Shown: positions 1-10,330 of the stretch, one piece after another | Layout of the letters: every line of letters begins with the position of its first letter | Position numbering within the stretch: the stretch's first letter is position 1 | DNA from: a virus | Lineage: Duplodnaviria; Heunggongvirae; Uroviricota; Caudoviricetes | Virus record (IMG/VR): IMGVR_UViG_2541047849_000005 | Location: 1 to 10,330 of that record | DNA length: 10,330 nt | Direction: 5' to 3' (one strand) | The notes under the pieces: model-generated | Seen by the model: the letters and a program-made list of their open reading frames with translations, nothing else | What the model was told of the DNA's origin: nothing | The model's database searches: none | Position numbers and translations under genes: made by a program

Positions 1-861
1 ATGAGATTCAGCACCCCATTACGGTATCCTGGTGGTAAAGGTAAATTAACTAACTATCTATCAAAGATCATTATGATCAATGGCTTAGATGGTTGCGAAT
101 ATGTTGAGCCGTATGCTGGTGGTGCTGGAGTAGCCATTAATTTACTTTTGTCTGGGAAAGCATCACGTATACATTTAAACGATCTTAATAACGCCATTTT
201 TTGTTTTTGGCGGTCGATTCTAGAAGAAACTGATCAGTTTTGCCAATTAATTGAAAAAACTCCTGTGAATATGGATGAATGGTATAAGAATAAAAATATC
301 ATTAGTAATCAATGTGATTATTCCTCATTGGAAGTTGGATTCGCTACGTTTTTCCTTAATCGAACAAATCGGTCAGGAATTTTGTTAGGTGGTGTAATTG
401 GTGGTAAGGAACAAAATGGAAAATGGAAAATAGATGCTCGATTTAATAAGGTTGATTTAGTAAACCGTATTAAGGTAATAGCAGACCGTAAATCTGATAT
501 TTGTATCTATAACCAAGATGCTAAATCATTCTTGCAAAATACTGTAACTGGATTCCCATTAAAAACATTGCTTTATCTTGACCCTCCATATTATGTTAAA
601 GGAAAGGGCTTGTATCAAAACCATTATAGTCATGATGATCATGTCGAAATTGCTAATATTATAAAATCTAATTCAAAGCATCCATGGATTGTATCTTACG
701 ATAATACTGTTGAAATAAACAACATGTACACTGGTCTTAGAAAAATTGAGTACGGTATCAGCTATAGTGCTCAATCTAGGTACCAAGGGCCAGAAGTAAT
801 CTTTTTTTGTGATAGCATTTCTATTCCTGATGATATGGATCCTACAAGAGTCAAATTATAG
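1..861 (+). CDS. Dam-family (D12 class) N6-adenine DNA methyltransferase, 286 aa
   Basis: N-terminal AdoMet-binding region YPGGKGKL...VEPYAGGAGV (aa 9-44), FFLNRTNRSG block, catalytic DPPY at aa 194-197 (nt 580-591). Colinear with E. coli Dam motif order (WAGGK / VEPFVGAGS / LYLNRYGYNG / CDPPY) as recalled. Visibly AT-rich compared with the neighbouring int. ATG at nt 1, TAG at 859-861. Confidence 0.85.
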   Translation: MRFSTPLRYPGGKGKLTNYLSKIIMINGLDGCEYVEPYAGGAGVAINLLLSGKASRIHLNDLNNAIFCFWRSILEETDQFCQLIEKTPVNMDEWYKNKNIISNQCDYSSLEVGFATFFLNRTNRSGILLGGVIGGKEQNGKWKIDARFNKVDLVNRIKVIADRKSDICIYNQDAKSFLQNTVTGFPLKTLLYLDPPYYVKGKGLYQNHYSHDDHVEIANIIKSNSKHPWIVSYDNTVEINNMYTGLRKIEYGISYSAQSRYQGPEVIFFCDSISIPDDMDPTRVKL

Positions 862-1981
862 CTATTTTACTCCAATCTTTCCCTCGGTCATCATGGTAGC
901 GATCTGTTTGCTGCTGGGTTTTATGGCCCAGTAGCTTTCTAGTATCGATCCCCTGTTCTTTGTACAGGCGTTCAGATAAAGACCTTTGTTCATGGAATGT
1001 TGCGGGTGAGCCATCACCCCAGTCAATTCCTGCTAAATCCCTCGCTTTACTGAAATTCATCGTCAATGTATTGGCTTTTACTTGCGCGCCACGTTCAGCC
1101 TGTGAAGTAGTACGAAAAAAATGTACAAGGTATGGGCTGACTGCATAGTCACGACAGCGGGCTACTACATTGCGTAAACTCCAGTTAATCGCATTGAGGC
1201 GAAGAGAAAGAGGAATTGCGATTTTGCTTCCAGTCTTTTCCTGTACGACATGAAGATGATCATCCCAAATATCGCTAAATTTCATACGCGAGATATCACC
1301 TAACCGCTGGCCAGTAACCAGTGCTAACAGCATGGCATTCCCCATATAACGATGACTGGCATCTGCGATTTCAAAGATTTTTTGCCATTCTTCAAGACTT
1401 AACCGTTGTCGGGTAATTTTTCTTCTGGGCTGTTTGGTGGCTAATGCCGGGTTATAGCCCGGGGGGACTTCTCCGTAGTGTTGCGCCTCCTTGAATACAT
1501 CAATCAGGACGGAACGAACTACTTGCGCCATTCTCGGCTGTCCGACGGCGATATACTCGTCAAGCAACTGGGCTATATCCCTGACATCAACGGCTGAAAT
1601 TAACTTCAGTCCTGCTCGTTCCCTGAGCAAGGATACTGGTTTGGCTTTCTGTTTATAGGTATTGAGCTTTATATCGCCACTTTTCAGTCTGTCATCCTGG
1701 ATTGCTTGATAGCGATCTAACCAGGTTGACGTTGTGATTGCTTTTCCTTTGCTGGTTGCGATTCTGTCACTGATAGCCAGAATCTGCCGGGTTCTTTGCT
1801 CAGCCAGGCGTGTATTGGCCTCAGTGGCAATAGCAATGGCTTCAGCTTCGTTTGTGCCCAAAGAATGAAACTTCCCGGTCACTGGATGCTTATATCGCCA
1901 ATAAACTTTATTTACTTTTCTGCTATAGAGTGGATACAAGTTCGGGACTGAAACATTATTTTTACGTGGTCTGGCTGCCAT
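851..1981 (-). CDS. int: Lambda-family tyrosine integrase (site-specific recombinase), 376 aa
   Basis: N-terminal arm-binding-type region (PNLY...YWRYKHPVTGK), catalytic-domain blocks LALVTGQRLGDISRMKFSDI and C-terminal HEQRSLSERLY...LLGHKTQQQTDRYHDDRGKDW closely parallel lambda Int (HELRSLSARLY...LLGHKSDTMASQYRDDRGREW), with the catalytic Tyr in DRYHDDRG. Stop TGA on the complement of 851-853. Confidence 0.92.
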   Translation of the reverse strand: MAARPRKNNVSVPNLYPLYSRKVNKVYWRYKHPVTGKFHSLGTNEAEAIAIATEANTRLAEQRTRQILAISDRIATSKGKAITTSTWLDRYQAIQDDRLKSGDIKLNTYKQKAKPVSLLRERAGLKLISAVDVRDIAQLLDEYIAVGQPRMAQVVRSVLIDVFKEAQHYGEVPPGYNPALATKQPRRKITRQRLSLEEWQKIFEIADASHRYMGNAMLLALVTGQRLGDISRMKFSDIWDDHLHVVQEKTGSKIAIPLSLRLNAINWSLRNVVARCRDYAVSPYLVHFFRTTSQAERGAQVKANTLTMNFSKARDLAGIDWGDGSPATFHEQRSLSERLYKEQGIDTRKLLGHKTQQQTDRYHDDRGKDWSKIAII

Positions 1982-2207
1982 TACTTAAAATCCTTTGTAG
2001 AATAATAGAATCATTTTTCTTGATGACAGGAGTAACTAATTCCCCAACTAACTCTGCGTCCTCACGTACTCGCCATAGTCGACCTTGTTTCATTGCCGGT
2101 GGACAAAATAAATTCTGCTTAGCATAACGACGCAATGTGGACACACTTGGAGGATTACTCCTAAATTTTTCCGCAGCCCATTCCTCAAGTGTCAGCATTT
2201 GAAGCAT
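1962..2207 (-). CDS. xis: Excisionase (Xis, lambda-like), about 81 aa
   Basis: Small basic protein MLTLEEWAAEKFRSNPPSVSTLRRYAKQNLFCPPAMKQGRLWRV resembling lambda Xis (MYLTLQEWNARQRRPRSLETVRRWVRECRIFPPPVKDGREYLF). Its 3' end overlaps the int start by 20 nt, as in lambda. Start chosen at the second in-frame ATG (2207), which has a GAGG about 9 nt upstream; the ORF-track start at 2222 is an alternative. Confidence 0.75.
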   Translation of the reverse strand: MLQMLTLEEWAAEKFRSNPPSVSTLRRYAKQNLFCPPAMKQGRLWRVREDAELVGELVTPVIKKNDSIILQRILSNGSQTT

Positions 2208-2250
2208 TTTTGATAACCTCATTTCTTTTGCTACAAAACTATTTCACTAG

Positions 2251-2799
2251 TTAATTTCGCTGTCTGGATTGTTTATGTATCTTATGCAGCTCTTTAAAGC
2301 GTTCCATAAACATCCCGTAGGCATGGCCCGGTGCCAGTGGAATCACTTTGAACATCTCTGTTGCCGGGATACCTTCCAGTACAGACCAGAAAGAGCCATC
2401 ATCAAGCCCGAGATCGCGGCGTTCGGTTGCCAGCATGATGAGATCGGCATATTTCACAGGCGTGCTCATAACCGGGGGTAACCCGTATTTCTCACGGATT
2501 ACGGCGTCTATTTTTTCTTCCATCCGTTTATAGTCAGGAAGAAGGCGTTTCAGTGGCGCGGGGATGTCCTGACAATAAGCTTCTGTTGCATCATGCATTA
2601 ACGCTTCAAAAGCAAATTCCTGCGGTACCAGCTGGCTGCAAAGCACCGCATGTTGGGCGACGCTGTAGAAGTGTGAAAGATGTCCTGCAAAGCGACAGAT
2701 ATTTGAAAGGGAAACCGCGATATCGTTAATAACGATGTCGTCTTTATTTATCCTGTCATAATAAAAATGCTTCCCAGAAAAAGTTTTAATAAATGACAT
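2251..2799 (-). CDS. yfdR: HD-domain phosphohydrolase, YfdR-like (prophage 5'-deoxynucleotidase family), about 182 aa
   Basis: HD-domain metal-ligand pattern: H in FAGHLSHF, HD in ALMHDATEAY, downstream D in ATERRDLG. Start placed at the internal ATG (2799) preceded by GGAGAA; the 21-codon upstream extension to 2862 has no RBS. Position between xis and a YfdQ-like gene matches the K-12 CPS-53 yfdQ-yfdR order as recalled. Confidence 0.7.
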   Translation of the reverse strand: MSFIKTFSGKHFYYDRINKDDIVINDIAVSLSNICRFAGHLSHFYSVAQHAVLCSQLVPQEFAFEALMHDATEAYCQDIPAPLKRLLPDYKRMEEKIDAVIREKYGLPPVMSTPVKYADLIMLATERRDLGLDDGSFWSVLEGIPATEMFKVIPLAPGHAYGMFMERFKELHKIHKQSRQRN

Positions 2800-2893
2800 T
2801 TTGTTCTCCACGTTATTTGCGCTGCACCGCACAGAATTCTGGTAAAAGGAAGCCCTCACCATCCGGCGATTATTGAGTTAATTACGTTTCCAT

Positions 2894-2915
2894 AAATGCC
2901 CCCGCAGGGGCATTT
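2894..2915. other. Perfect 9-bp stem / 4-nt loop hairpin (AAATGCCCC-CGCA-GGGGCATTT) in the intergenic gap between the YfdQ-like and YfdR-like genes
   Basis: Inverted repeat read directly from the sequence. There is no clean U-tract after the stem on the minus (transcribed) strand, so it is more likely an RNA-processing, stability or attenuation element than a strong terminator. Confidence 0.35.
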
Positions 2916-2927
2916 GCAGTAATGAAA

Positions 2928-3752
2928 TCAGGCGGTGAAAGTACCAATAAAGGTTTCTACTTTGCTGTCTTTGAATTTCTCAACAAGCAGATCACGAAAT
3001 TCGTTAGCCATTTCTTCCTGCACCGCTTCCAGCTGAATAATGCGCAGAACCAGTACAGGACGATCGCCAGTGATAATGCTGAGGCGTAATTTAAATGAAC
3101 GTTCTTTCAGGCCTTCAAACGGAACGCATTTAAATTCAAATGCCACTGGCATAATGTCTTTGGTCTTCGCTTCGACAGACTCCATCAGGGAGCGTTTGCC
3201 GCTGAAGTCATTATCTTCAAAATCAGCGGTCTGGTTCGCTTCAATTGTGATTTTACGGATAGCTGCCGCCGCTTTGGTTGCCTGAATGGCGTCACCATTA
3301 GCATCAAAGCCCACAAGGTAGTCGGCCCAGTCTTCAATCCATTCTGCCAGTGATTTCTGGGAGTTACGCTCGCCATTAACAGACAACAGAGCAGAGAACG
3401 GTGCTGTCTTTTTCAGTTTGAGAGTGGCGGTGTTATCTGCGTGACCTGGTTCATCAATAGTACCCAGGTTAAGCACACTGACGGCACGCATATTATCAGC
3501 ATCGATAAAGCAGCGGGTGCCTTCATCTGCAAGATCTTTAGAATAACGGGTAAAGTCATCGATGCTGGCAGTGGAAAGCGCACCACGGAAACGGAAGCGA
3601 TTTAAATTAAATTTTTCCAGATCATGAATGCGGAAATTCTCAGGCAATGCCACAGCATCGGCACCAATCTTACTGATAATTTCATTAACACCCTGAGCAG
3701 AAATAAGGGCATGGATTTGATTAATTGCGGTTGCGTCTAAGTTCTGAGACAT
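2928..3752 (-). CDS. Phage early protein, YfdQ-like (DUF2303-type), 274 aa
   Basis: Long ORF with a GAGGA RBS 7-11 nt upstream of the ATG. Size (274 aa) and position immediately upstream of the HD-domain gene match prophage yfdQ as recalled. Family name is tentative; no catalytic motif recognised. Confidence 0.65.
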
Positions 3753-3817
3753 AATAAGTCCTCACTATATAAAGATATTCAGTGATGAGATAAATAATCA
3801 GTTAATTAATAACGATA

Positions 3818-4180
3818 TTAATGGCCTGCTGCGCGGAGTTTTCCGTCAGGTTCACCGGCAAGAGTCAGTAATTGTCCCTGGTCTTCCTGCAGAATAGTCA
3901 GGCGACCACCGCGATTGACATACATCGGCGTTTCGGTGGTGTCTTCTTCGGAAATTTTCCCGCGGTTAGTCGGGCGAACATATGAGAGTTTGTGTTTGAT
4001 TTTCACACGGTTCTCATCAAATGGTTCGATTTCCAGGTTGAGTGAGACCTTACCTTTGGTTTTCGTGTTCATCACACCGGAAGCGACTTCACTGAGAACT
4101 GCGCCGATTTTGGTTTCAAATACGCCGCCGTCCAGCTCCCCGATAAATGCCTGCACATCAGTACTGCGTTCGCTAGCCAT
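3818..4180 (-). CDS. Hypothetical phage early protein, 120 aa (positional equivalent of yfdP)
   Basis: ATG at complement 4178-4180 preceded by GAGGAG (ATGATGAGGAGCAGCAAAATG). Sequence beginning MASERSTDVQAFIGELDGGVFETKIG has normal composition. The ORF-track extension up to 4498 is Arg/Cys-rich and implausible. Confidence 0.65.
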   Translation of the reverse strand: MASERSTDVQAFIGELDGGVFETKIGAVLSEVASGVMNTKTKGKVSLNLEIEPFDENRVKIKHKLSYVRPTNRGKISEEDTTETPMYVNRGGRLTILQEDQGQLLTLAGEPDGKLRAAGH

Positions 4181-4324
4181 TTTGCTGCTCCTCATCATAT
4201 CGACCCTGCAAGGCCGATTAGTTTCTCCACAAAACAGAGAAGAACACCTGCGGTGGCAGCCGCCCGGATGGATTGGGTTATGAGCCCGTCGTCCGGTGAT
4301 GCTCTTCTCTGTTTTGTAAAAAGG

Positions 4325-4411
4325 ACGGTACCAGCCGGAAGCAAGGGTACAAACTGGTACCGCCAGGACTACACACAGCATAAAGTTGTGGTGCCGGGTG
4401 CCTCCCGGTGC
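4325..4411. repeat. Cluster of six GGT(A/G)CC motifs: 9-bp inverted repeat CGGTACCAG(4325-4333)/CTGGTACCG(4353-4361) plus three direct GGTGCC copies (4389-4394, 4396-4401, 4406-4411)
   Basis: Read directly from the sequence. Lies in a GC-rich non-coding island between divergently oriented gene blocks; could be operator or recombination-site remnants. Confidence 0.4.
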
Positions 4412-4617
4412 CTGGCGAAGGTTGCACACCAGACGGGTGGGTATCCACAGAAGGTCGACTGTCAGCCTCAACCTTAACCCGCGTGCGCTGAGCCGCATTC
4501 ACCACAACGCTAAGGATTCTCTCTGGTTGAAAATACTTAGCTGTTATGTGCCTGTCTTTTCACCACTTCAGGCTCGGTGGTATCCTTTTAAGCCCGTATA
4601 CATAAAAGGAAAATCAA

Positions 4618-4767
4618 ATGACTTTTGATGAAAAAGAACTTGATAATGCAATTAATAAAATCATCGTAACGTCGCTCTTTTCCTGTCTCAGCGACACTCA
4701 GCAGAAACAGTTCTACGAATCGGCTTTCAACATGATCGAGCGTTGTTGTTTCTGCGATGCCGACTAG
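4618..4767 (+). CDS. Small ORF, 49 aa (MTFDEKELDNAINKIIVTSLFSCLSDTQQKQFYESAFNMIERCCFCDAD), hypothetical; possibly the N-terminal stump of a deleted gene
   Basis: ATG at 4618 preceded by AAAGGAAAA 7-8 nt upstream; stop TAG at 4765-4767. Not in the supplied ORF track, presumably below its length cut-off. Overlaps the 5' end of the tape-measure reading frame in another frame. Confidence 0.3.
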   Translation: MTFDEKELDNAINKIIVTSLFSCLSDTQQKQFYESAFNMIERCCFCDAD

Positions 4768-6302
4768 TTACAACGGCTGATTTTCAGAACATGATGCAGA
4801 TGCTGGTGCGTCAGGGGATCCCGGCAGAAAACATTCTTGGCGGTGTGGGTAAAGCGACAGCTTATCTTGCGGTACAACTGAAAAAAACACCGGAAGCGGC
4901 TGCCGAGTTTGCCGCAAAGATGCAGGATGCTACCGGAACGGCGTCAGAAGACATGATGGGGCTGTTCGACACTATCCAGAAGGCGTTTTATCTGGGCGTT
5001 GACGATACCAACATGTTGTCCTTCTTCACTAAAACCAGTTCTGTTCTGAAGATGGTGAACAAGGACGGTCTTCAGGCTGCACAGAGCCTTGCCCCCATCA
5101 GCGTCATGATGGATCAGATGGGGATGAACGGGGAGTCGGCAGGTAATGCCCTGCGAAAAGTTATCCAGTCCGGATTAAGCGTTAAGAAAATCAGGGACGT
5201 CAATAAAATCATGGCCCGCCAGAAACTCGGGGTACAGCTCGATTTTACTGATGGCAAAGGGAGTTTTGGCGGTCTTGATAACATGTTCAGGCAACTGGCA
5301 AAGCTGCGAAAACTGACCGACGTTAAGCGAACCGGTGTACTTAAGGCAATATTTGGTGATGATGCCGAAACCCTTCAGGTGGTCAATGCTCTGATCGATA
5401 AAGGAAAGAATGGTTACGATCAGATCCAGCAGAAGATGCATAAACAGGCCAGCCTGAATAAACGTGTTCAGGCCCAGCTTGGTACGCTGTCCAACCTGTG
5501 GGAGGCAATGACGGGGACCGCAACTAACGGCCTTGCGGCTATTGGTGGCGCATTTTCTGGTGACGCCAAAAATATCACGCAATGGCTGGGGGAGTTAGGG
5601 GAAAAATTCACGAAGTTTGCGGATGAAAATCCCCGGGTTATTCGCGGCGTCGTCGGGCTTGCTGCCGGTCTTGCGATTCTGAAACTGGGATTGATGGGCG
5701 TGGGCAGTGCCATCAGTATCGTCAGCAGGATCATGTCGATGACGCCGATTGGCATGATTGCGACGGCGATTGCCCTGGCTGCGGGATTAATTATCACTAA
5801 CTGGGATGTTGTCGGACCTTATTTTAAGAAACTCTGGGAAACCATTAGTCCTTATTTTGAGGCTGGCTGGGAACTTCTGAAGAAGGTTTTTGCCTGGTCG
5901 CCGCTGGGGATGGTGATCAATAACTGGGGACCGGTTGTTAAGTGGTTTCAGGATATGTGGGATAAGCTGAAGCCGATTATTGAATGGTTTACCGACAGTT
6001 CCGGTGACACGGTCGATGCCATTAACTCGGCGCAGTGGGGCGCGGGTGCTTATGATGCTTATGAGACGGGAATACCGCCACGGGGATACACTCCTTATCC
6101 GGAGGTGGATCCGGCTCAGGCAAACAACGCCTCCGGTGCCACAGGCTCGAATCCCTTCATGATTAATAAAGTTACCGCGCCAAAAGTTGATGGTGAGATC
6201 AAGGTATCATTTATAAATATGCCACCAGGTATGCGGGTTACGGAAACACGCTCCAGTGGCATTGATATAAATCACGATGTTGGCTATACCCGATTTTGGT
6301 AG
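4743..6302 (+). CDS. Phage tail tape measure protein, C-terminal portion (probably a 5'-truncated remnant; pseudogene candidate)
   Basis: Internal hydrophobic stretch (VIRGVVGLAAGLAILKLGLMGVGSAISIV...IGMIATAIALAAGLIIT) followed by a Trp-periodic region (W every 9-11 residues, about nt 5797-5990), both typical of tape measure proteins. The frame is open from 4659, with a TTG at 4743 and the first ATG at 4791, and no convincing RBS. At about 519 aa it is shorter than the usual 700-900 aa, and the upstream sheath/tube/chaperone genes are absent. Confidence 0.7.
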   Translation: MLFLRCRLVTTADFQNMMQMLVRQGIPAENILGGVGKATAYLAVQLKKTPEAAAEFAAKMQDATGTASEDMMGLFDTIQKAFYLGVDDTNMLSFFTKTSSVLKMVNKDGLQAAQSLAPISVMMDQMGMNGESAGNALRKVIQSGLSVKKIRDVNKIMARQKLGVQLDFTDGKGSFGGLDNMFRQLAKLRKLTDVKRTGVLKAIFGDDAETLQVVNALIDKGKNGYDQIQQKMHKQASLNKRVQAQLGTLSNLWEAMTGTATNGLAAIGGAFSGDAKNITQWLGELGEKFTKFADENPRVIRGVVGLAAGLAILKLGLMGVGSAISIVSRIMSMTPIGMIATAIALAAGLIITNWDVVGPYFKKLWETISPYFEAGWELLKKVFAWSPLGMVINNWGPVVKWFQDMWDKLKPIIEWFTDSSGDTVDAINSAQWGAGAYDAYETGIPPRGYTPYPEVDPAQANNASGATGSNPFMINKVTAPKVDGEIKVSFINMPPGMRVTETRSSGIDINHDVGYTRFW

Positions 6303-6330
6303 CCAGGATTCCCCTCACAGGTATTGCTGG

Positions 6331-6358
6331 TTGTAAGTCATAAATAGAGTGATAGAAT
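6331..6358 (+). promoter_or_regulatory. Candidate sigma70 promoter with extended -10 for the moron gene (-35 TTGTAA 6331-6336; 16-nt spacer; TGaTAGAAT with hexamer at 6353-6358)
   Basis: Motifs read from the sequence; about 35 nt upstream of the 6394 start codon. Not experimentally supported. Confidence 0.4.
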
Positions 6359-6393
6359 TAATGCACATTTAGAAAAATGTTAATAGGCGAAAA

Positions 6394-6924
6394 ATGAAAG
6401 GCTATATCACAGCAAGTGTAATTCTTGGAGCAGCGGCTATTTTTTCATCTCTCATAATCTCTGGCAACATCTCCTTTAAAGATGAACATATTATTCAGTT
6501 ATCTGGAGGAGCCATAAAACTTGGTGATGTTTATAAAGAAAATAAATTGATAAGTGCAAAGATTATTTTTCCAGATAATCAGGGTGAACAGATTCTTGTT
6601 GTCGACGGCAATCCTGAAAACTTTAAGGAGGATTTTCAGGGGAAATTAAATAAAGTAATAAAAACTTTAAATGCGTCAAAGAAAAAAGATGAAGAGAAAG
6701 TTAGCCTGGATAATTTAAGTGTTATTGAAGAGTCTAAACTAGAGCTCGTTTCTGCGGTGCGTTACTCTGCTCAGTATGTTCCTATGTTTACTCTGACGCT
6801 GGACAAAAAAGAAATTACCATGCCTAAAAATACGGTAATATTTCCATTTGCCAGCGATGAAACAGCTAAGTATTTAAATGAACAACAGCAAAAGTATAAA
6901 GATTCGTTGTTTCTGACTCGCTAA
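6394..6924 (+). CDS. Moron-encoded membrane-anchored protein of unknown function, 176 aa (single N-terminal hydrophobic span, Lys/Glu-rich C-terminal domain)
   Basis: Clean ORF in an AT-rich insert. N-terminus MKGYITASVILGAAAIFSSLIISG is an approximately 20-residue hydrophobic signal-anchor; no cysteine, so not a lipoprotein. Flanked by its own promoter candidate and an intrinsic terminator. No family recognised. Confidence 0.8.
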   Translation: MKGYITASVILGAAAIFSSLIISGNISFKDEHIIQLSGGAIKLGDVYKENKLISAKIIFPDNQGEQILVVDGNPENFKEDFQGKLNKVIKTLNASKKKDEEKVSLDNLSVIEESKLELVSAVRYSAQYVPMFTLTLDKKEITMPKNTVIFPFASDETAKYLNEQQQKYKDSLFLTR

Positions 6925-6941
6925 TTAATAAAATTCATTAC

Positions 6942-6975
6942 AAGGCCACCTTCTAATAGGTGGCTTTTTAATTTT
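6942..6975 (+). terminator. Rho-independent terminator (stem GCCACCT 6945-6951 / AGGTGGC 6958-6964, loop TCTAAT, then TTTTTAATTTT)
   Basis: GC-rich 7-bp stem followed directly by a T-run, 18 nt after the moron stop codon and just before the next gene's RBS. Confidence 0.75.
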
Positions 6976-6985
6976 CGGAGTATAT

Positions 6986-8404
6986 ATGACGTGGAAAGAC
7001 AGGCTTCAGGATGCGTCATTTCGAGGTGTGCCGTTTAAGGTTGAAGAAGAAAGTGCGGGAACTGGCCGTCGTGTGGAAACGCACGAATACCCGAACCGCG
7101 ACAAACCCTATACCGAAGACCTGGGGAAAATTACTTTCCGCCCGTCCATCACGGCTTATGTGGTGGGAGATGACTGCTTTGACCAGCGCGATCGCCTGAT
7201 TGACGCGCTGAATAAACCCGGTCCCGGCACGCTTGTCCATCCGACTTACGGTGAGCTGAAAGTCTGTGTTGACGGAGAAGTTCGGGTCAGCACATCGAAG
7301 AGTGAAGGACGTATTGTCCGCTTTGACCTGAAGTTTGTCGAAGCAGGAGAACTCTCTTACCCCACATCAGGTGCGGCGACGGCGCAGGCGCTGATGTCAT
7401 CCTGTTCTGCACTGGATGACTGCATCAGTAACAGCTTCAGCGGTTTTAGTATCGATGGCGTGGCGGATTTTGTGCAGAACGACGTCGTCGGTAATGCCAG
7501 CACAATGCTTGGGTATGTTTCTGATGCGATGAAAGTGGTGGATTCTGCCGTATCGGATGCCGCCAGGCTGTTGCAGGGGGATATCTCGGTACTTCTGCCG
7601 CCGCCATCGTCAGGCAAAAATTTCGTTGAGCAGGTGCAGAAAATGTGGCGTACCGGGAAACGCCTTTATGGTAACGCCAGCGACCTGGTCACCATGATCA
7701 AAACGCTTTCTGGTGTCAGCCTCGGCAGCGATTTGCAACCGCGCGGCGTCTGGAAAATGGACAGTAAAACCACCGCCACAGCGACGCAGCAGCGTAACAT
7801 GGTTGCCAGCACCCTTCGTACGACTGCAATCAGCGAAGCGGCGTATGCCGTTACCCGATTGCCTGCGCCAACAACTTCTGCGGTGATGCAGAATGCCGCA
7901 GTGGGGCAGTCAACAACACCCGCGCAGAGCTCCGGCTGGCCTGCCGTCACGCATCCGGTGCTGAACAATGCACCGGCGGTGAAAAACACGGTTGACCTGC
8001 CAACGTGGGAAGAACTGACCGACATTCGCGACACACTGAATATGGCAATTGATAAGGAGTTGTCCCGTACAACCAGTGATGCGCTGTTTCTGGCGCTGCG
8101 CCGGGTGAAAGCAGATCTGAATGCGGATACCTGGCCTGCGGTACAGAATGACCGTTACGGCTCCCGACTGTGGCTGCTTCAGCGCAGCAAACTGACCAAT
8201 CAGCTGGTGCAGACGGTAAGGGGGTATATCCGCGAATGCCTGCAATGGATGATTGATGATGGCGTGGTGTCCCGTATTGATCTGGATATCCGCCGCACCG
8301 GGATTAATGAACTGGGTAACAGTATCACTCTCTGGCGTCGTGACGGACCGGTAATGATTTCTTTTGATGATCTGTGGAGTGCGATAACGCATGGCGGACA
8401 GTGA
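6986..8404 (+). CDS. Mu-type DNA circulation protein (gpN/gp43-like) tail component, 472 aa
   Basis: N-terminus MTWKDRLQDASFRGVPFKVEEESAGTGRRVETHEYPNRDKPYTEDLG carries the hallmark SFRGVPF...GRR..HEYP.RD block of the DNA-circulation N-terminal domain. GGAG RBS 5 nt upstream of the ATG at 6986. Confidence 0.85.
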   Translation: MTWKDRLQDASFRGVPFKVEEESAGTGRRVETHEYPNRDKPYTEDLGKITFRPSITAYVVGDDCFDQRDRLIDALNKPGPGTLVHPTYGELKVCVDGEVRVSTSKSEGRIVRFDLKFVEAGELSYPTSGAATAQALMSSCSALDDCISNSFSGFSIDGVADFVQNDVVGNASTMLGYVSDAMKVVDSAVSDAARLLQGDISVLLPPPSSGKNFVEQVQKMWRTGKRLYGNASDLVTMIKTLSGVSLGSDLQPRGVWKMDSKTTATATQQRNMVASTLRTTAISEAAYAVTRLPAPTTSAVMQNAAVGQSTTPAQSSGWPAVTHPVLNNAPAVKNTVDLPTWEELTDIRDTLNMAIDKELSRTTSDALFLALRRVKADLNADTWPAVQNDRYGSRLWLLQRSKLTNQLVQTVRGYIRECLQWMIDDGVVSRIDLDIRRTGINELGNSITLWRRDGPVMISFDDLWSAITHGGQ

Positions 8405-9449
8405 ATTTCAGCGCCCGACGCTGGCAGAAAATATCAGTATGCTCCGTAACGATTTATTCGCCAGGCTGGACGTCAGCGACACGCTCCGGCGCATGGATGA
8501 AGACGTGCGGGCAAAGGTGTATGCGGCGGCGCTGCATACGGTTTACGGTTACATCGATTATCTGGCAATGAACATGCTGCCTGACCTGTGCGATGAGTCC
8601 TGGCTGGCGCGACATGCTGCGATGAAACGGTGTCCGCGCAAGGGGGCCACGGCTGCCAGCGGGTATATGCGCTGGGAAGGTGTCAGCGATGGCCTGAAGG
8701 TGACTGCCGGGAGCGTGATTCAGCGCGATGACCTGGTTCAGTACACGGCAACTGCTGATGCAACCAGCTCCGGTGGTGTCCTGCGCGTGCCGATCACTTG
8801 CTCAAGTGCAGGCGCGGTCGGTAACGCTGACGACGGTACGGCATTAATCCTGGTCACGCCGGTGAATGGTCTGCCGTCTTCCGGTGTTGCAGATACTCTG
8901 ACTGGCGGATTCGATACTGAAGATCTGGAAACGTGGCGCGCCCGCGTCATTGAGCGGTATTACTGGACGCCGCAGGGCGGGGCTGACGGGGACTATGTCG
9001 TCTGGGCTAAAGAAGTGCCCGGCATTACCCGCGCATGGACATACCGTCACTGGATGGGAACGGGAACTGTCGGTGTGATGATTGCCAGCAGTGACCTGAT
9101 TAATCCCATTCCGGAAGAATCAACGGAAACGGCGGCAAGACAACATATCGGGCCACTGGCCCCGGTGGCAGGCTCTGATTTGTATGTGTTCAGGCCGGTG
9201 GCACATACGGTGGATTTTCATATCCGCGTGACGCCGGACACACCGGAAATACGGGCTGCCATCACCGCGGAGTTGCGTTCGTTCCTGCTGCGTGATGGTT
9301 ATCCGCAGGGAGAACTGAAGGTATCGCGTATCAGTGAGGCGATTTCCGGTGCGAACGGGGAATACAGCCATCAGTTGCTTACACCGGCAGACAATATCTC
9401 CATTGCAAAAAATGAACTGGCGGTACTGGGGACGATTTCATGGACGTGA
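8391..9449 (+). CDS. Baseplate J-like protein (Mu gp47 / P2 gpJ / e14 JayE family), 352 aa
   Basis: Size, position before a gp48/YmfQ-like gene and the tail fibre, and overall similarity to baseplate-J proteins as recalled. Start overlaps the upstream stop by 14 nt (translational coupling). Confidence 0.7.
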
Positions 9450-10024
9450 CAAACGATGATTACATCCGTCTGTTGTCGGCACTGTTGCCCCCCGGTCCGG
9501 CGTGGTCAGCCAGCGATCCGTCGATTGCCGGTGCGGCACCGTCATTAACCCGCGTTCATCAGCGTGCGGATGCCCTGATGCGGGAGCTGGATCCGCGCAC
9601 CACCACTGAACTGATAAACCGCTGGGAGCGTCTGTGCGGTCTGCCGGATGAATGTATTCCCGCAGGGACACAGACCCTTCGCCAGCGTCAGCAACGGCTG
9701 GATGCGAAGGTTAACCTGGCGGGCGGCATCAACGAGGATTTTTACCTTGCACAGCTTGCTGCCCTGGGCAGACCAGACGCTACCATCACGCGATACGACA
9801 AAAGCACGTTCACCTGCTCATCGGCCTGTACTGACGCTGTGAACGCGCCTGAATGGCGGTATTACTGGCAGGTCAACATGCCAGCCACCACCAACACCAC
9901 TTGGATGACATGTGGCGATCCCTGTGATTCCGCGCTGCGCTTCTGGGGGGACACCGTTGTCGAGTGTGTTCTTAACAAACTCTGCCCGTCGCATACCTAT
10001 GTGATTTTTAAATATCCGGAGTAA
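9440..10024 (+). CDS. Phage tail protein, Mu gp48 / YmfQ-like (DUF2313-type), 194 aa
   Basis: Length identical to e14 YmfQ as recalled; located between the baseplate-J-like and tail-fibre genes; overlaps the upstream gene by 10 nt. Confidence 0.7.
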
Positions 10025-10027
10025 TCC

Positions 10028-10330
10028 ATGCATCGTATAGACACGAAAACCGCGCAGAAGGATAAGTTCGGCGCGGGTAAGAACGGTTTTACCCGTGGTA
10101 ACCCCCAGACCGGCACGCCTGCCACCGATCTGGATGATGACTACTTTGACATGTTGCAGGAGGAGCTTTGCAGCGTTGTGGAGGCATCCGGTGCCAGCCT
10201 GGAGAAGGGGCGGCATGACCAGCTGCTTACCGCGCTTCGTGCGCTGCTGTTAAGCCGCAAGAATCCGTTTGGCGATATCAAATCGGATGGCACGGTGAAA
10301 ACAGCTCTCGAAAACCTTGGTTTGGGAGAA
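10028..10330 (+). CDS. Side tail fibre protein, N-terminal part (partial; continues beyond the window)
   Basis: N-terminus [47 protein letters not shown] is the conserved baseplate-attachment N-terminus seen in Mu-type/e14-type tail fibres, as recalled. GGAG 7 nt upstream of the ATG at 10028. No stop codon before the window end. Confidence 0.75.

Follow-up and report, generated by a model that had tools for sequence, protein, structure and literature searches.

The genes yfdP, yfdQ and yfdR make up an already described cassette that is common next to the excision genes of lambda-like phages; all three have names and annotations, over half of the complete E. coli genomes contain them, and published work describes them as a common cluster of the early-left region. 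In E. coli K-12, where they lie in the CPS-53 (KpLE1) prophage, YfdR binds DnaA, and overexpressed yfdQRST inhibits replication initiation (Noguchi & Katayama 2016, PMC4776307). YfdR contacts domain I of DnaA in a Phe46-dependent manner and competes with DiaA and DnaB, and it slows initiation at oriC only if over-supplied alongside YfdQ and either YfdS or YfdT. The minimal inhibitory set is yfdQ and yfdR together with yfdS or yfdT; a plasmid with only yfdQR failed to suppress, and yfdP is dispensable (PMC4776307). YfdR is described as a metal-dependent phosphohydrolase of the HD type that shows weak dNMP phosphatase activity; it reportedly binds nucleotides with much lower affinity than YfbR does, and its function is given as elusive (PMC4776307, citing Zimmerman 2008). 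Deletion of yfdQRST in K-12 has no effect on initiation or hydroxyurea resistance (PMC4776307), and according to reports cited by Noguchi and Katayama, deletion of yfdQ in K-12 raises sensitivity to H2O2 and MMS (PMC4776307). In other K-12 work yfdPQ are treated as an operon, yfdPQ mRNA is detectable, and the strongest genomic binding of SrsR, a host transcription factor, is at the yfdO/yfdP spacer, in which four SrsR boxes are listed (PMC9181523).

We analysed a 10,330-nucleotide stretch of a virus record (IMGVR_UViG_2541047849_000005, positions 1 to 10,330), referred to here as the window. A sequence-only reading had reported three co-oriented genes with good ribosome-binding sites upstream of xis-int, and all of these ORFs are indeed found at 2251-4180 on the minus strand. 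The features are listed by their coordinates in the window.

851..1981, minus strand: intE-type tyrosine integrase of the icd-specific e14 family (Pfam Arm-DNA-bind_1 2e-37, Phage_integrase 9.9e-17)
1962..2222, minus strand: xisE-type excisionase directly downstream of yfdR (Pfam Exc 2.1e-12), named xisE in RefSeq relatives
~2227..4190, minus strand: yfdP-yfdQ-yfdR cassette as a presence/absence unit of 1.96 kb, with boundaries from comparison with K-12 e14 and CPS-53
2251..2799, minus strand: yfdR, 182 aa, HD-domain phosphohydrolase, RefSeq name 5'-deoxynucleotidase
2894..2915, minus strand: GC-rich hairpin AAATGCCCC-TGCG-GGGGCATTT in the yfdQ-yfdR gap, from direct reading of the sequence
2928..3752, minus strand: yfdQ, 274 aa, DUF2303 (PF10065)
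3818..4180, minus strand: yfdP, 120 aa, YfdP family (PF27127), which opens the cassette and is the invariant partner of yfdQ
4316..4538, minus strand: STnc100-like structured RNA ending in a hairpin and a T5 run, in the same orientation as yfdP and shortly upstream of it
4769..4771, no strand: junction of the 21.3-kb deletion, with a 3-bp overlap, joining the yfdP upstream region to tape-measure codon ~100

The ribosome-binding sites of yfdP (GAGGAG) and yfdQ (GAGGA) lie 8 nt and 7 nt before the respective starts, and we place the start of yfdR at 2799, rather than using the longer ORF to 2862, because GGAG is present 7 nt upstream and this is also the K-12 start. The intergenic gaps are 65 nt between yfdP and yfdQ, 128 nt between yfdQ and yfdR, and 28–43 nt between yfdR and xis, depending on the xis start; the int and xis reading frames share a 20-nt overlap. 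RefSeq-annotated relatives have yfdP, yfdQ, yfdR, xisE and intE in the same order beside icd, and icd lies to the left of the intE-type integrase in relatives L001 and L012. The hairpin within the yfdQ-yfdR gap is part of the minimum-energy fold of the spacer and is not followed by a U-tract; it may serve in RNA processing or stabilisation, or act as a weak terminator. A 226-aa ORF at 3818-4498 was rejected as a gene, as it is an in-frame read-through from the STnc100-like RNA region into yfdP.

A homology search with all three proteins bore out the proposed relationships to YfdQ and YfdR, the identities to the K-12 CPS-53 proteins being 99.3% for YfdQ, 94.9% for YfdR (over 176 aa) and 99.2% for YfdP (over 120 aa). 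The product of the first gene, earlier called a 120-aa hypothetical protein, is therefore YfdP; it occupies the YfdP position immediately upstream of yfdQ, and the identical gene in L012 carries the precomputed label PF27127:YfdP. Its PHROGs match is phrog_204, of function unknown, and that of YfdQ is likewise 'unknown function'. YfdQ scores 309.7 bits against Pfam PF10065 (cut-off 26.6), with residues 7-272 aligned to profile positions 2-269 of 269, and has the invariant motifs FRFRG, PGHADN and EWxED. By sequence search we found a solved homologue, PDB 9o7m 'YfdQ Protein' (E 4.6e-45, 36 chains), whose sequence is from CP2-like Xanthomonas/Xylella phages; a literature search for a paper describing this entry found none.

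YfdR matches phrog_318 (1.4e-107) and the structure of the HD protein Atu1052 (2gz4, E 2.7e-13). The HD motif seen earlier in the last gene is intact, with H50, H69-D70, D78 and D119 aligning with the conserved H, HD, D and D metal ligands of 2gz4 and no loss-of-function mutation in the motif; close identity to the K-12 protein and these ligands together place it as a YfdR. The C-terminal ~13 codons diverge from K-12, with a mosaic boundary there, and at 94.9% identity it is plausible that YfdR of this strain binds DnaA, although those ~13 residues differ. It scores below the cut-offs for YfbR in both Pfam (YfbR-like PF12917, 24.0 against 25.9) and NCBIfam (NF003009, 19.9 bits against 122), and judged by these profiles it is a related HD protein and not a YfbR orthologue or equivalog. 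YfbR, the E. coli HD 5'-deoxynucleotidase, resembles YfdR in the HD fold, the H/HD/D ligands and the RefSeq name, but the far lower nucleotide affinities reported for YfdR (PMC4776307) count against the view that YfdR-type proteins are 5'-deoxynucleotidases, and DnaA binding is a property of YfdR. Searches with the three proteins gave no PADLOC defence match for YfdP, YfdQ or YfdR, and in Pfam only DUF2303 and a weak HD match; as no known toxin-antitoxin or defence family was among the matches, we rejected a role of either kind.

DnaA binding by YfdR and initiation inhibition by overexpressed yfdQRST, as stated in the sequence-only reading, are indeed published (PMC4776307), but the proposed transfer of this role to the present locus is not supported: yfdQR alone is negative in K-12, and yfdS and yfdT are absent both here and in intact e14-type relatives. 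With tblastn, YfdS, YfdT and YpdJ give only chance matches in the window (E ≥ 2.8) and none in L001 or in the intact relative L003. The replication-inhibiting yfdQRS or yfdQRT set is thus incomplete, with xis straight after yfdR, and the published phenotype is not transferable to a cassette of yfdPQR only.

The structured RNA upstream of yfdP matches Rfam RF02076 over the full model (1-206) with 41.2 bits against a gathering threshold of 47 (E 1.4e-7), and has a folding z-score of -5.0; PasD and STnc100 have been reported as relatives that are easily confused. The element is present upstream of the yfdP homologue in L001, SfV and ST64B, and also in K-12 e14; the terminator stem in ST64B has an altered sequence with its pairing kept. 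It is absent from phiNP, Eeyore, VT2phi_272, LPPA56 and the Vibrio and Xanthomonas loci, so that the module does not always include it; we count it as upstream context, outside the cassette. In close relatives PGAP calls this region a frameshifted pseudogene (ymfH in K-12), and it is more likely to be an STnc100-family RNA than a pseudogene.

Comparison with the two K-12 prophages defines the cassette as a mosaic unit with sharp boundaries between xis and the RNA element. K-12 e14 matches the window at 861-2226 and 4191-4586, and these segments are only ~16 bp apart in e14, whereas DNA homology to CPS-53 is confined to 2291-4199 (97.1% identity over 1,909 bp). The 5' boundaries from the two comparisons agree within ~8 nt and fall 10–18 nt upstream of the yfdP ATG, within or just upstream of the ribosome-binding site, so that the cassette is without a promoter of its own. 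The unit is carried by the window, CPS-53, phage SfV and Stx phages, is exactly absent from K-12 e14, and is matched in 3,107 of the 5,426 complete E. coli genomes searched. Its dN/dS is 0.04–0.17 against K-12 and L003, indicating purifying selection; the comparison with the closest relative, L001, involves only 8 substitutions and is uninformative. Among eight phages checked, from Escherichia to Xanthomonas, a yfdP homologue is directly upstream of yfdQ in every one, and YfdR is next after the pair in four. The YfdP-YfdQ pair occurs in phages of Escherichia, Salmonella, Citrobacter, Vibrio, Pseudomonas and Xanthomonas, with a spacing of 45–65 nt between the two genes. The real unit of conservation is this pair, which forms the core of the cassette, with yfdR added to it only in the enteric phages among those checked.

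The element containing the cassette is an e14-family prophage at icd, the middle of which has been lost by two strain-specific deletions, in agreement with its earlier description as a structurally dead prophage. Window 864-4771 corresponds to L003 6678-10585, and window 4769-8129 to L003 31884-35244; the 21,298 bp missing between them hold the repressor, cro, replication, lysis, head, sheath and tube genes, as well as 299 nt from the start of the tape-measure gene. The second deletion removed 1,954 bp of baseplate genes, with its junction at 8125-8129 (5 bp overlap), and gave rise to a fusion ORF at 6986-8404, a 472-aa open frame that an exact look-up finds in one contig only. The 4769-4771 junction is in no other genome among 5,426 complete E. 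coli and the GTDB representatives. Tail-gene fragments beside the cassette are 99.94% identical to an intact phage, and are as intact as the cassette. Both ends of the element carry defence cargo, an ATPase and D12 methylase pair and a GmrSD enzyme.

In the intact relative, the best leftward promoter candidate and the only strong one, TTGACA-16-CATAAT, is located just past the repressor terminator, inside the deleted interval. A minus-strand consensus scan of 2030-4900, including the whole yfdP upstream region, found no promoter-like site, although weak promoters or read-through from upstream may escape a scan of this type. No SrsR boxes are present upstream of yfdP in the window, whereas we recognise three within 2 mismatches in the K-12 yfdO/yfdP spacer (L002 7462-7502). 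Loss of the repressor could de-repress any weak promoter in the retained 590 bp. With yfdS/T, the phage promoter and the K-12 SrsR region all missing, the cassette is probably weakly expressed or silent.

We think it likely that this is an ordinary early-left cassette of SfV/ST64B/e14-type lambdoid phages, carried as a passenger in a twice-deleted e14-family prophage. In the intact phage, leftward transcription would start from a promoter beside the repressor gene and pass through the RNA element, and the transcript would then cover yfdP-yfdQ, yfdR, xis and int. For this strain a passenger is the most likely status of the cassette, which was spared because the left deletion endpoint lies 590 bp upstream of it. 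Retention looks accidental, set by the deletion endpoint, since yfdS/T are absent, the promoter candidate is lost, SrsR boxes are lacking, the junction is unique, and useless tail fragments are intact too; the intactness of a gene in a recently formed deletion derivative does not count as evidence for selection. We consider it very improbable that misassembly of a scaffold-level genome produced the dead prophage and that the cassette in fact lies in an intact one: the source scaffold (KE701198.1) does have a run of N immediately after the window, and the junctions were found in no other genome searched, but they join unique sequences with overlaps of 3 and 5 bp, unlike repeat-driven mis-joins, and both lie within continuous sequence, where the 6986-8404 frame is open. 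The sequence-only reading had taken retention as a sign of selection for a host-benefiting or addictive function, for example damping of initiation or tuning of dNMP pools under stress. The wide distribution of the cassette and its intact state both here and in the independent CPS-53 remnant count against a passenger, as do the low dN/dS and the cited stress sensitivity of yfdQ deletions, with which host-level effects are possible; SrsR binding and detectable yfdPQ mRNA in K-12 (PMC9181523) also favour a host benefit. However, a past in active phages predicts low dN/dS equally, a junction seen in one genome leaves little time for selection, the adjoining non-functional tail fragments are just as intact, and K-12 e14, another long-retained remnant of the same phage type, is missing the cassette. 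The SrsR boxes and phage promoter candidate are gone, yfdS/T, needed in K-12 for the replication phenotype, are absent, the K-12 yfdQRST deletion was without effect on initiation or hydroxyurea resistance, and none of the three proteins matches a toxin-antitoxin or defence family. We therefore regard selection for host benefit or addiction as improbable, and the defence genes at the two ends of the element are better candidates for such a benefit than the cassette.

A different question is what the pair does in phages, and here we allow some chance, short of favouring it, that YfdP-YfdQ with or without YfdR is an unrecognised DNA-metabolism or anti-defence system, with YfdQ a large oligomer and a role unrelated to DnaA. 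Conservation of the pair from Escherichia to Vibrio, Pseudomonas and Xanthomonas phages with its fixed 45–65 nt spacing is consistent with such a system, as are its neighbours (SSB, exonucleases, RecT or other recombinases, and a DnaQ-like exonuclease), the invariant YfdQ motifs and the 36 YfdQ chains in 9o7m. Those chains may nevertheless represent copies within a crystal or particle and not a single assembly, the entry lacks a paper that we could find, PADLOC gives no match, and the cluster co-occurs with complete Rec modules, recombination proteins having been argued to be unlikely (Genome Res 2025). A role as part of a recombination module was rejected, since VT2phi_272 has the pair alongside a full gam-recT-exo-ssb set, in agreement with that paper. 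As a guess, YfdP and YfdQ have a replication or host-takeover role early in infection, with YfdQ as a large homo-oligomer. A more specific form, which we offer tentatively, is a two-gene phage system in which homo-oligomeric YfdQ and YfdP may act early on host replication or against defence and third partners are interchangeable, YfdR being only one of several; the window would then carry one more, probably silent, copy.

Returning to the passenger reading, the locus compares with the described systems as follows. Like the window, CPS-53 has the yfdP-yfdQ-yfdR order and a cassette upstream of an excisionase in a defective prophage, but there yfdR is followed by yfdS, yfdT, ypdJ and torI, and the integrase is at the other end, at argW; in the window xisE-intE come directly after yfdR, at icd, without yfdS/T. 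Upstream, divergence from CPS-53 begins 18 nt before the yfdP ATG, with the K-12 SrsR boxes on one side of the comparison and the STnc100-like RNA of the window on the other. SfV (orf32-31-30), ST64B (sb37-36-35), LLS (gp39-38-37) and phiNP have the same gene order between the immunity region and xis/int, and SfV and ST64B share with the window the STnc100-like element upstream of the yfdP homologue. These four are complete, inducible phages with a repressor, promoters and more early-left genes, whereas the window has lost the whole region rightward of the RNA element as far as the tape-measure gene. K-12 e14 is alike in its int/xis family, icd site, jayE/ymfQ tail remnants, STnc100-like region (ymfH) and defence cargo at both ends, but it has no yfdPQR, its xisE and ymfH being ~16 bp apart, and it has kept the repressor ymfK and cro; its defence cargo is lit and mcrA, where the window has the ATPase and D12 methylase pair and the GmrSD enzyme.

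The window comes from E. coli assembly GCA_000459575.1 (scaffold KE701198.1) and holds an e14-family prophage remnant directly to the right of icd, with the features listed here.

Features of the remnant (window coordinates)
1-861, plus strand: D12-class adenine methylase
851-1981, minus strand: intE-type integrase
1962-2222, minus strand: xisE-type excisionase
2251-4180, minus strand: three genes, yfdR, yfdQ and yfdP
2894-2915, minus strand: perfect 9-bp GC-rich hairpin, AAATGCCCC-TGCG-GGGGCATTT, in the 128-nt yfdQ-yfdR spacer
Between yfdP and the tape-measure gene: non-coding stretch of 590 bp with one 49-aa ORF
4316-4538, minus strand: STnc100-like structured RNA (Rfam match across the full model), directly 5' of yfdP
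4618-4767, plus strand: the 49-aa ORF, matching phrog_3311 (function not known, 2.9e-32), on the other strand from the cassette, with the RNA element to its left and the deletion junction to its right
Right part of the window, plus strand: 5'-truncated tape-measure gene, then Mu-like baseplate and tail genes
6986-8404, plus strand: fusion ORF of 472 aa, product of a 1,954-bp deletion

The three co-oriented minus-strand genes proposed in the sequence-only reading are present as ORFs, and a Shine-Dalgarno sequence 7-8 nt 5' of each agrees with the good ribosome-binding sites ascribed to them. The yfdR start is most likely at 2799, giving 182 aa and matching K-12 and RefSeq relatives, rather than that of the longer ORF from 2862. 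Homology to YfdQ and YfdR was borne out at 99.3% and 94.9% identity to the proteins of CPS-53, a defective K-12 prophage, and YfdQ has a full-length DUF2303 match (309.7 bits). The gene described as a 120-aa hypothetical is real but not hypothetical, being 99.2% identical to CPS-53 YfdP, a member of the new Pfam family PF27127. The HD motif is also as described, with H50, H69-D70, D78 and D119 of YfdR aligning with the ligands of the solved HD protein Atu1052 (2gz4). YfdR matches PHROG 318, "deoxyribonucleoside 5' monophosphate phosphatase", and, since it scores under the curated YfbR-family cut-offs, is classed from its sequence as a related HD protein and not a YfbR orthologue. YfdP, YfdQ and YfdR have no match among the PADLOC defence families. 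The cassette genes are already known; RefSeq annotates these genes, with their order kept, beside xisE/intE in many E. coli genomes, and the region is matched in 3,107 of 5,426 complete E. coli genomes, over at least 80% of its length in 1,177.

DNA homology to CPS-53 is confined to positions 2291-4199. K-12 e14 matches the window at 861-2226 and 4191-4586, segments lying about 16 bp apart in e14, and the 1,964 bp between them here correspond exactly to yfdR-yfdQ-yfdP. Because these flanks match the window and nearly abut in e14, the three genes constitute a presence/absence unit; among e14-type elements both states are common. The 5' edge of the cassette falls about 10 nt (relative to e14) or about 18 nt (relative to CPS-53) before the yfdP ATG, within the ribosome-binding site or directly upstream of it, and the cassette is thus without its own promoter and reliant on upstream sequence. 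The spacer hairpin has no U-tract downstream, lies within a block 97.1% identical to CPS-53 (an identity that is block-wide, not base by base), and may act as the divide between a yfdPQ transcript and yfdR.

Deletions were mapped against the intact e14-type relative NZ_OZ547164.1 (L003), to which the window aligns in three collinear pieces, with two intervals absent. The first (21,298 bp) contains the repressor ymfK, cro, and replication, Q, lysis, terminase, portal, capsid, sheath and tube genes, and includes the initial 299 nt of the tape-measure gene; the second (1,954 bp) contains baseplate genes. Overlaps of 3 and 5 bp mark the junctions at 4769-4771 and 8125-8129, respectively, and the 49-aa ORF, a hypothetical protein in relatives' annotation, has its stop codon 2-4 bp before the first junction. 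With both intervals missing relative to an intact phage, the description of a structurally dead prophage holds. The second deletion gives an ORF that starts as a DNA-circularisation protein (N-terminal part) and ends as a GP46 baseplate protein (C-terminal part), and the exact sequence of this fusion protein is recorded on one contig only. A 28-mer spanning junction 1 was not found in GTDB species representatives, and none of the 1,107 E. coli records matching either side spans that junction; the 21.3-kb deletion looks young and private.

Amid tail genes of 50-57% GC there is a 176-aa ORF (6394-6924, plus strand) of about 34% GC, which has no match in Pfam, occurs in the intact relative as well (L003 33509-34039), and looks like a moron within the tail operon. 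Adjoining the right end of the window, the source scaffold apparently contains a run of N (13347-15765 of the extracted region, L012), where five of six reading frames (three minus, two plus) contain long ORFs. This run probably explains the window end at 10330, and it leaves the tail-fibre/invertase part of the element not resolved in the scaffold.

The RNA element 5' of yfdP scores 41.2 bits against STnc100, below the gathering score of 47 (E 1.4e-7). It folds much more stably than shuffled sequences (z -5.0) and ends in a hairpin and T5 run, its own terminator. Copies are found in four other sequences.

Copies of the STnc100-like element
L001 (closest relative), 10415-10626
L004 (phage SfV), 3723-3938
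L005 (phage ST64B), 3727-3845
L013 (K-12 e14), 6193-6414

In the closest relative, SfV and ST64B the element is 5' of a yfdP homologue, and the annotated CDS ymfH overlaps the e14 copy. The RNA core is almost the same in the window and in ST64B, although the two YfdQ proteins are only 57% identical, and the ST64B terminator stem has another sequence with pairing kept. In close relatives (L001 and L003) PGAP labels the element "frameshifted hypothetical protein". Among prophage sRNAs, STnc100 and PasD are already described, mostly near the Q/late region; a copy beside yfdP in the early-left region extends this pattern modestly and does not define a new class. In SfV (898-1086) and ST64B (1117-1305), C4 antisense RNA and isrK matches lie side by side within annotated 'immunity region'/regulator genes and exceed the gathering scores; this site is a P1/P7-type C4 immunity element beside the cI/cro region. 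In the closest relative there is also an STnc150 match below threshold (L001 4168-4306, minus strand; 46.4 bits, with 60 as the gathering score; E 1.4e-6), located between icd and the gene for the ATPase, on the attL side of the prophage, at roughly the position of the annotated K-12 sRNA C0293.

The cassette's retention had been taken as a sign of selection, an argument that gains no support in view of the apparently young private deletion, equally intact tail fragments, lost regulatory context, missing yfdS/yfdT, and e14. Beside the cassette, the tape-measure fragment, which has no promoter, and the baseplate genes likewise retain open frames, at 99.94% and 98.6% identity to the intact phage, so that intactness of the cassette does not discriminate. 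In the intact relative the sole near-consensus leftward promoter, TTGACA-16-CATAAT (11/12), lies directly past the terminator of the repressor, in the stretch lost by the first deletion. A minus-strand scan of 2030-4900, including all retained sequence 5' of yfdP, found no promoter-like site by consensus, a criterion that weak promoters or read-through could escape. In K-12 yfdPQ is handled as an operon, and the host regulator SrsR binds more strongly to the yfdO/yfdP spacer than to any other genomic site (PMC9181523); the K-12 SrsR boxes are absent here. K-12 e14, a long-lived remnant of the same phage family, is without the cassette. The low dN/dS values of the cassette genes (0.04-0.17, against K-12 and L003) show constrained proteins, as expected from life in active phages; the comparison with the closest relative yields just 8 substitutions, not enough for a test. 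Selection for retention has no support, and the cassette in this strain is quite probably a silent or weakly expressed passenger; the main caveat is that weak promoters or read-through could have escaped the scan, in a remnant that has lost its repressor.

The published function named in the sequence-only reading, inhibition of initiation by yfdQRST overexpression, is correct. In multicopy these genes suppress hda-185, which is how they were isolated; additional copies inhibit initiation at oriC, and the minimal set is yfdQ and yfdR with yfdS or yfdT; yfdP is dispensable (Noguchi and Katayama 2016, PMC4776307). Transfer of that function to this cassette is not supported, because a yfdQR plasmid gave no suppression (PMC4776307) and yfdS and yfdT were not found in the window. 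Gene deletion left initiation and hydroxyurea resistance unaffected, and its authors warn that what they saw on overexpression is perhaps an artefact (PMC4776307). A passage of that paper citing Zimmerman 2008 gives YfdR much lower nucleotide affinities than YfbR (PMC4776307).

Eight phages were compared (SfV, ST64B, phiNP, Eeyore, VT2phi_272, Pseudomonas LPPA56, Vibrio 24E30.2 and Xanthomonas Alcala). A YfdP homologue lies 45-65 nt 5' of a YfdQ homologue in all eight, and a YfdR homologue comes next in four, all enteric and of the SfV/ST64B type; in the others the next gene is ssb or encodes an unrelated protein. Judged by gene order, the conserved core is yfdP-yfdQ and not the trio. The neighbourhood is an early DNA-metabolism region with a DnaQ-like exonuclease, SSB, RecT or other recombinases, and an exonuclease. 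The yfdQ and yfdP types are of function not known and unlikely to be hidden recombination proteins (PMC12315714). PDB entry 9o7m, "YfdQ Protein", contains 36 chains of one 274-aa sequence, which matches the window YfdQ at E 4.6e-45 in a sequence search and originates from CP2-like Xanthomonas/Xylella phages (98.8% to phage MET23-P3); searches of two fold libraries did not return it, and a literature search found no describing paper. From the 36 chains, a reasonable reading is that YfdQ forms a large homo-oligomer.

In an intact phage, early-left transcription would begin beside the repressor gene, cross the STnc100-like RNA with its own terminator, and continue into yfdP-yfdQ, past the GC-rich hairpin and on to yfdR, xis and int, a path deduced from gene order and scans. 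YfdR would be an HD phosphohydrolase with a second property, binding to domain I of DnaA, as demonstrated for its K-12 counterpart, and YfdP and YfdQ may act jointly in an early function.

Between icd/attL and int lies a low-GC (31-35%) gene pair, both on the plus strand, at 1-861 of the window and L012 1237-2946. The D12 methylase matches PADLOC PD-Lambda-5_B (1.9e-121). The other gene encodes a 569-aa AAA_15/AAA_21 ATPase with best matches to the HEC-04, AriA and PtuA families, and PD-Lambda-5_A is not among the best 25 matches listed. The pair is likely defence cargo. A further enzyme is found where the element ends on the right, ahead of the icd' repeat.

L012 15990-17879, minus strand: full-length GmrSD-type type IV methyl-directed restriction enzyme (PADLOC mREase_IV, 1,514.8 bits)

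If the whole element helps its host, there are better candidates than the cassette at both ends. In K-12 e14, lit is in the slot held here by the ATPase and D12 methylase, and mcrA is in that held by the GmrSD-type enzyme.
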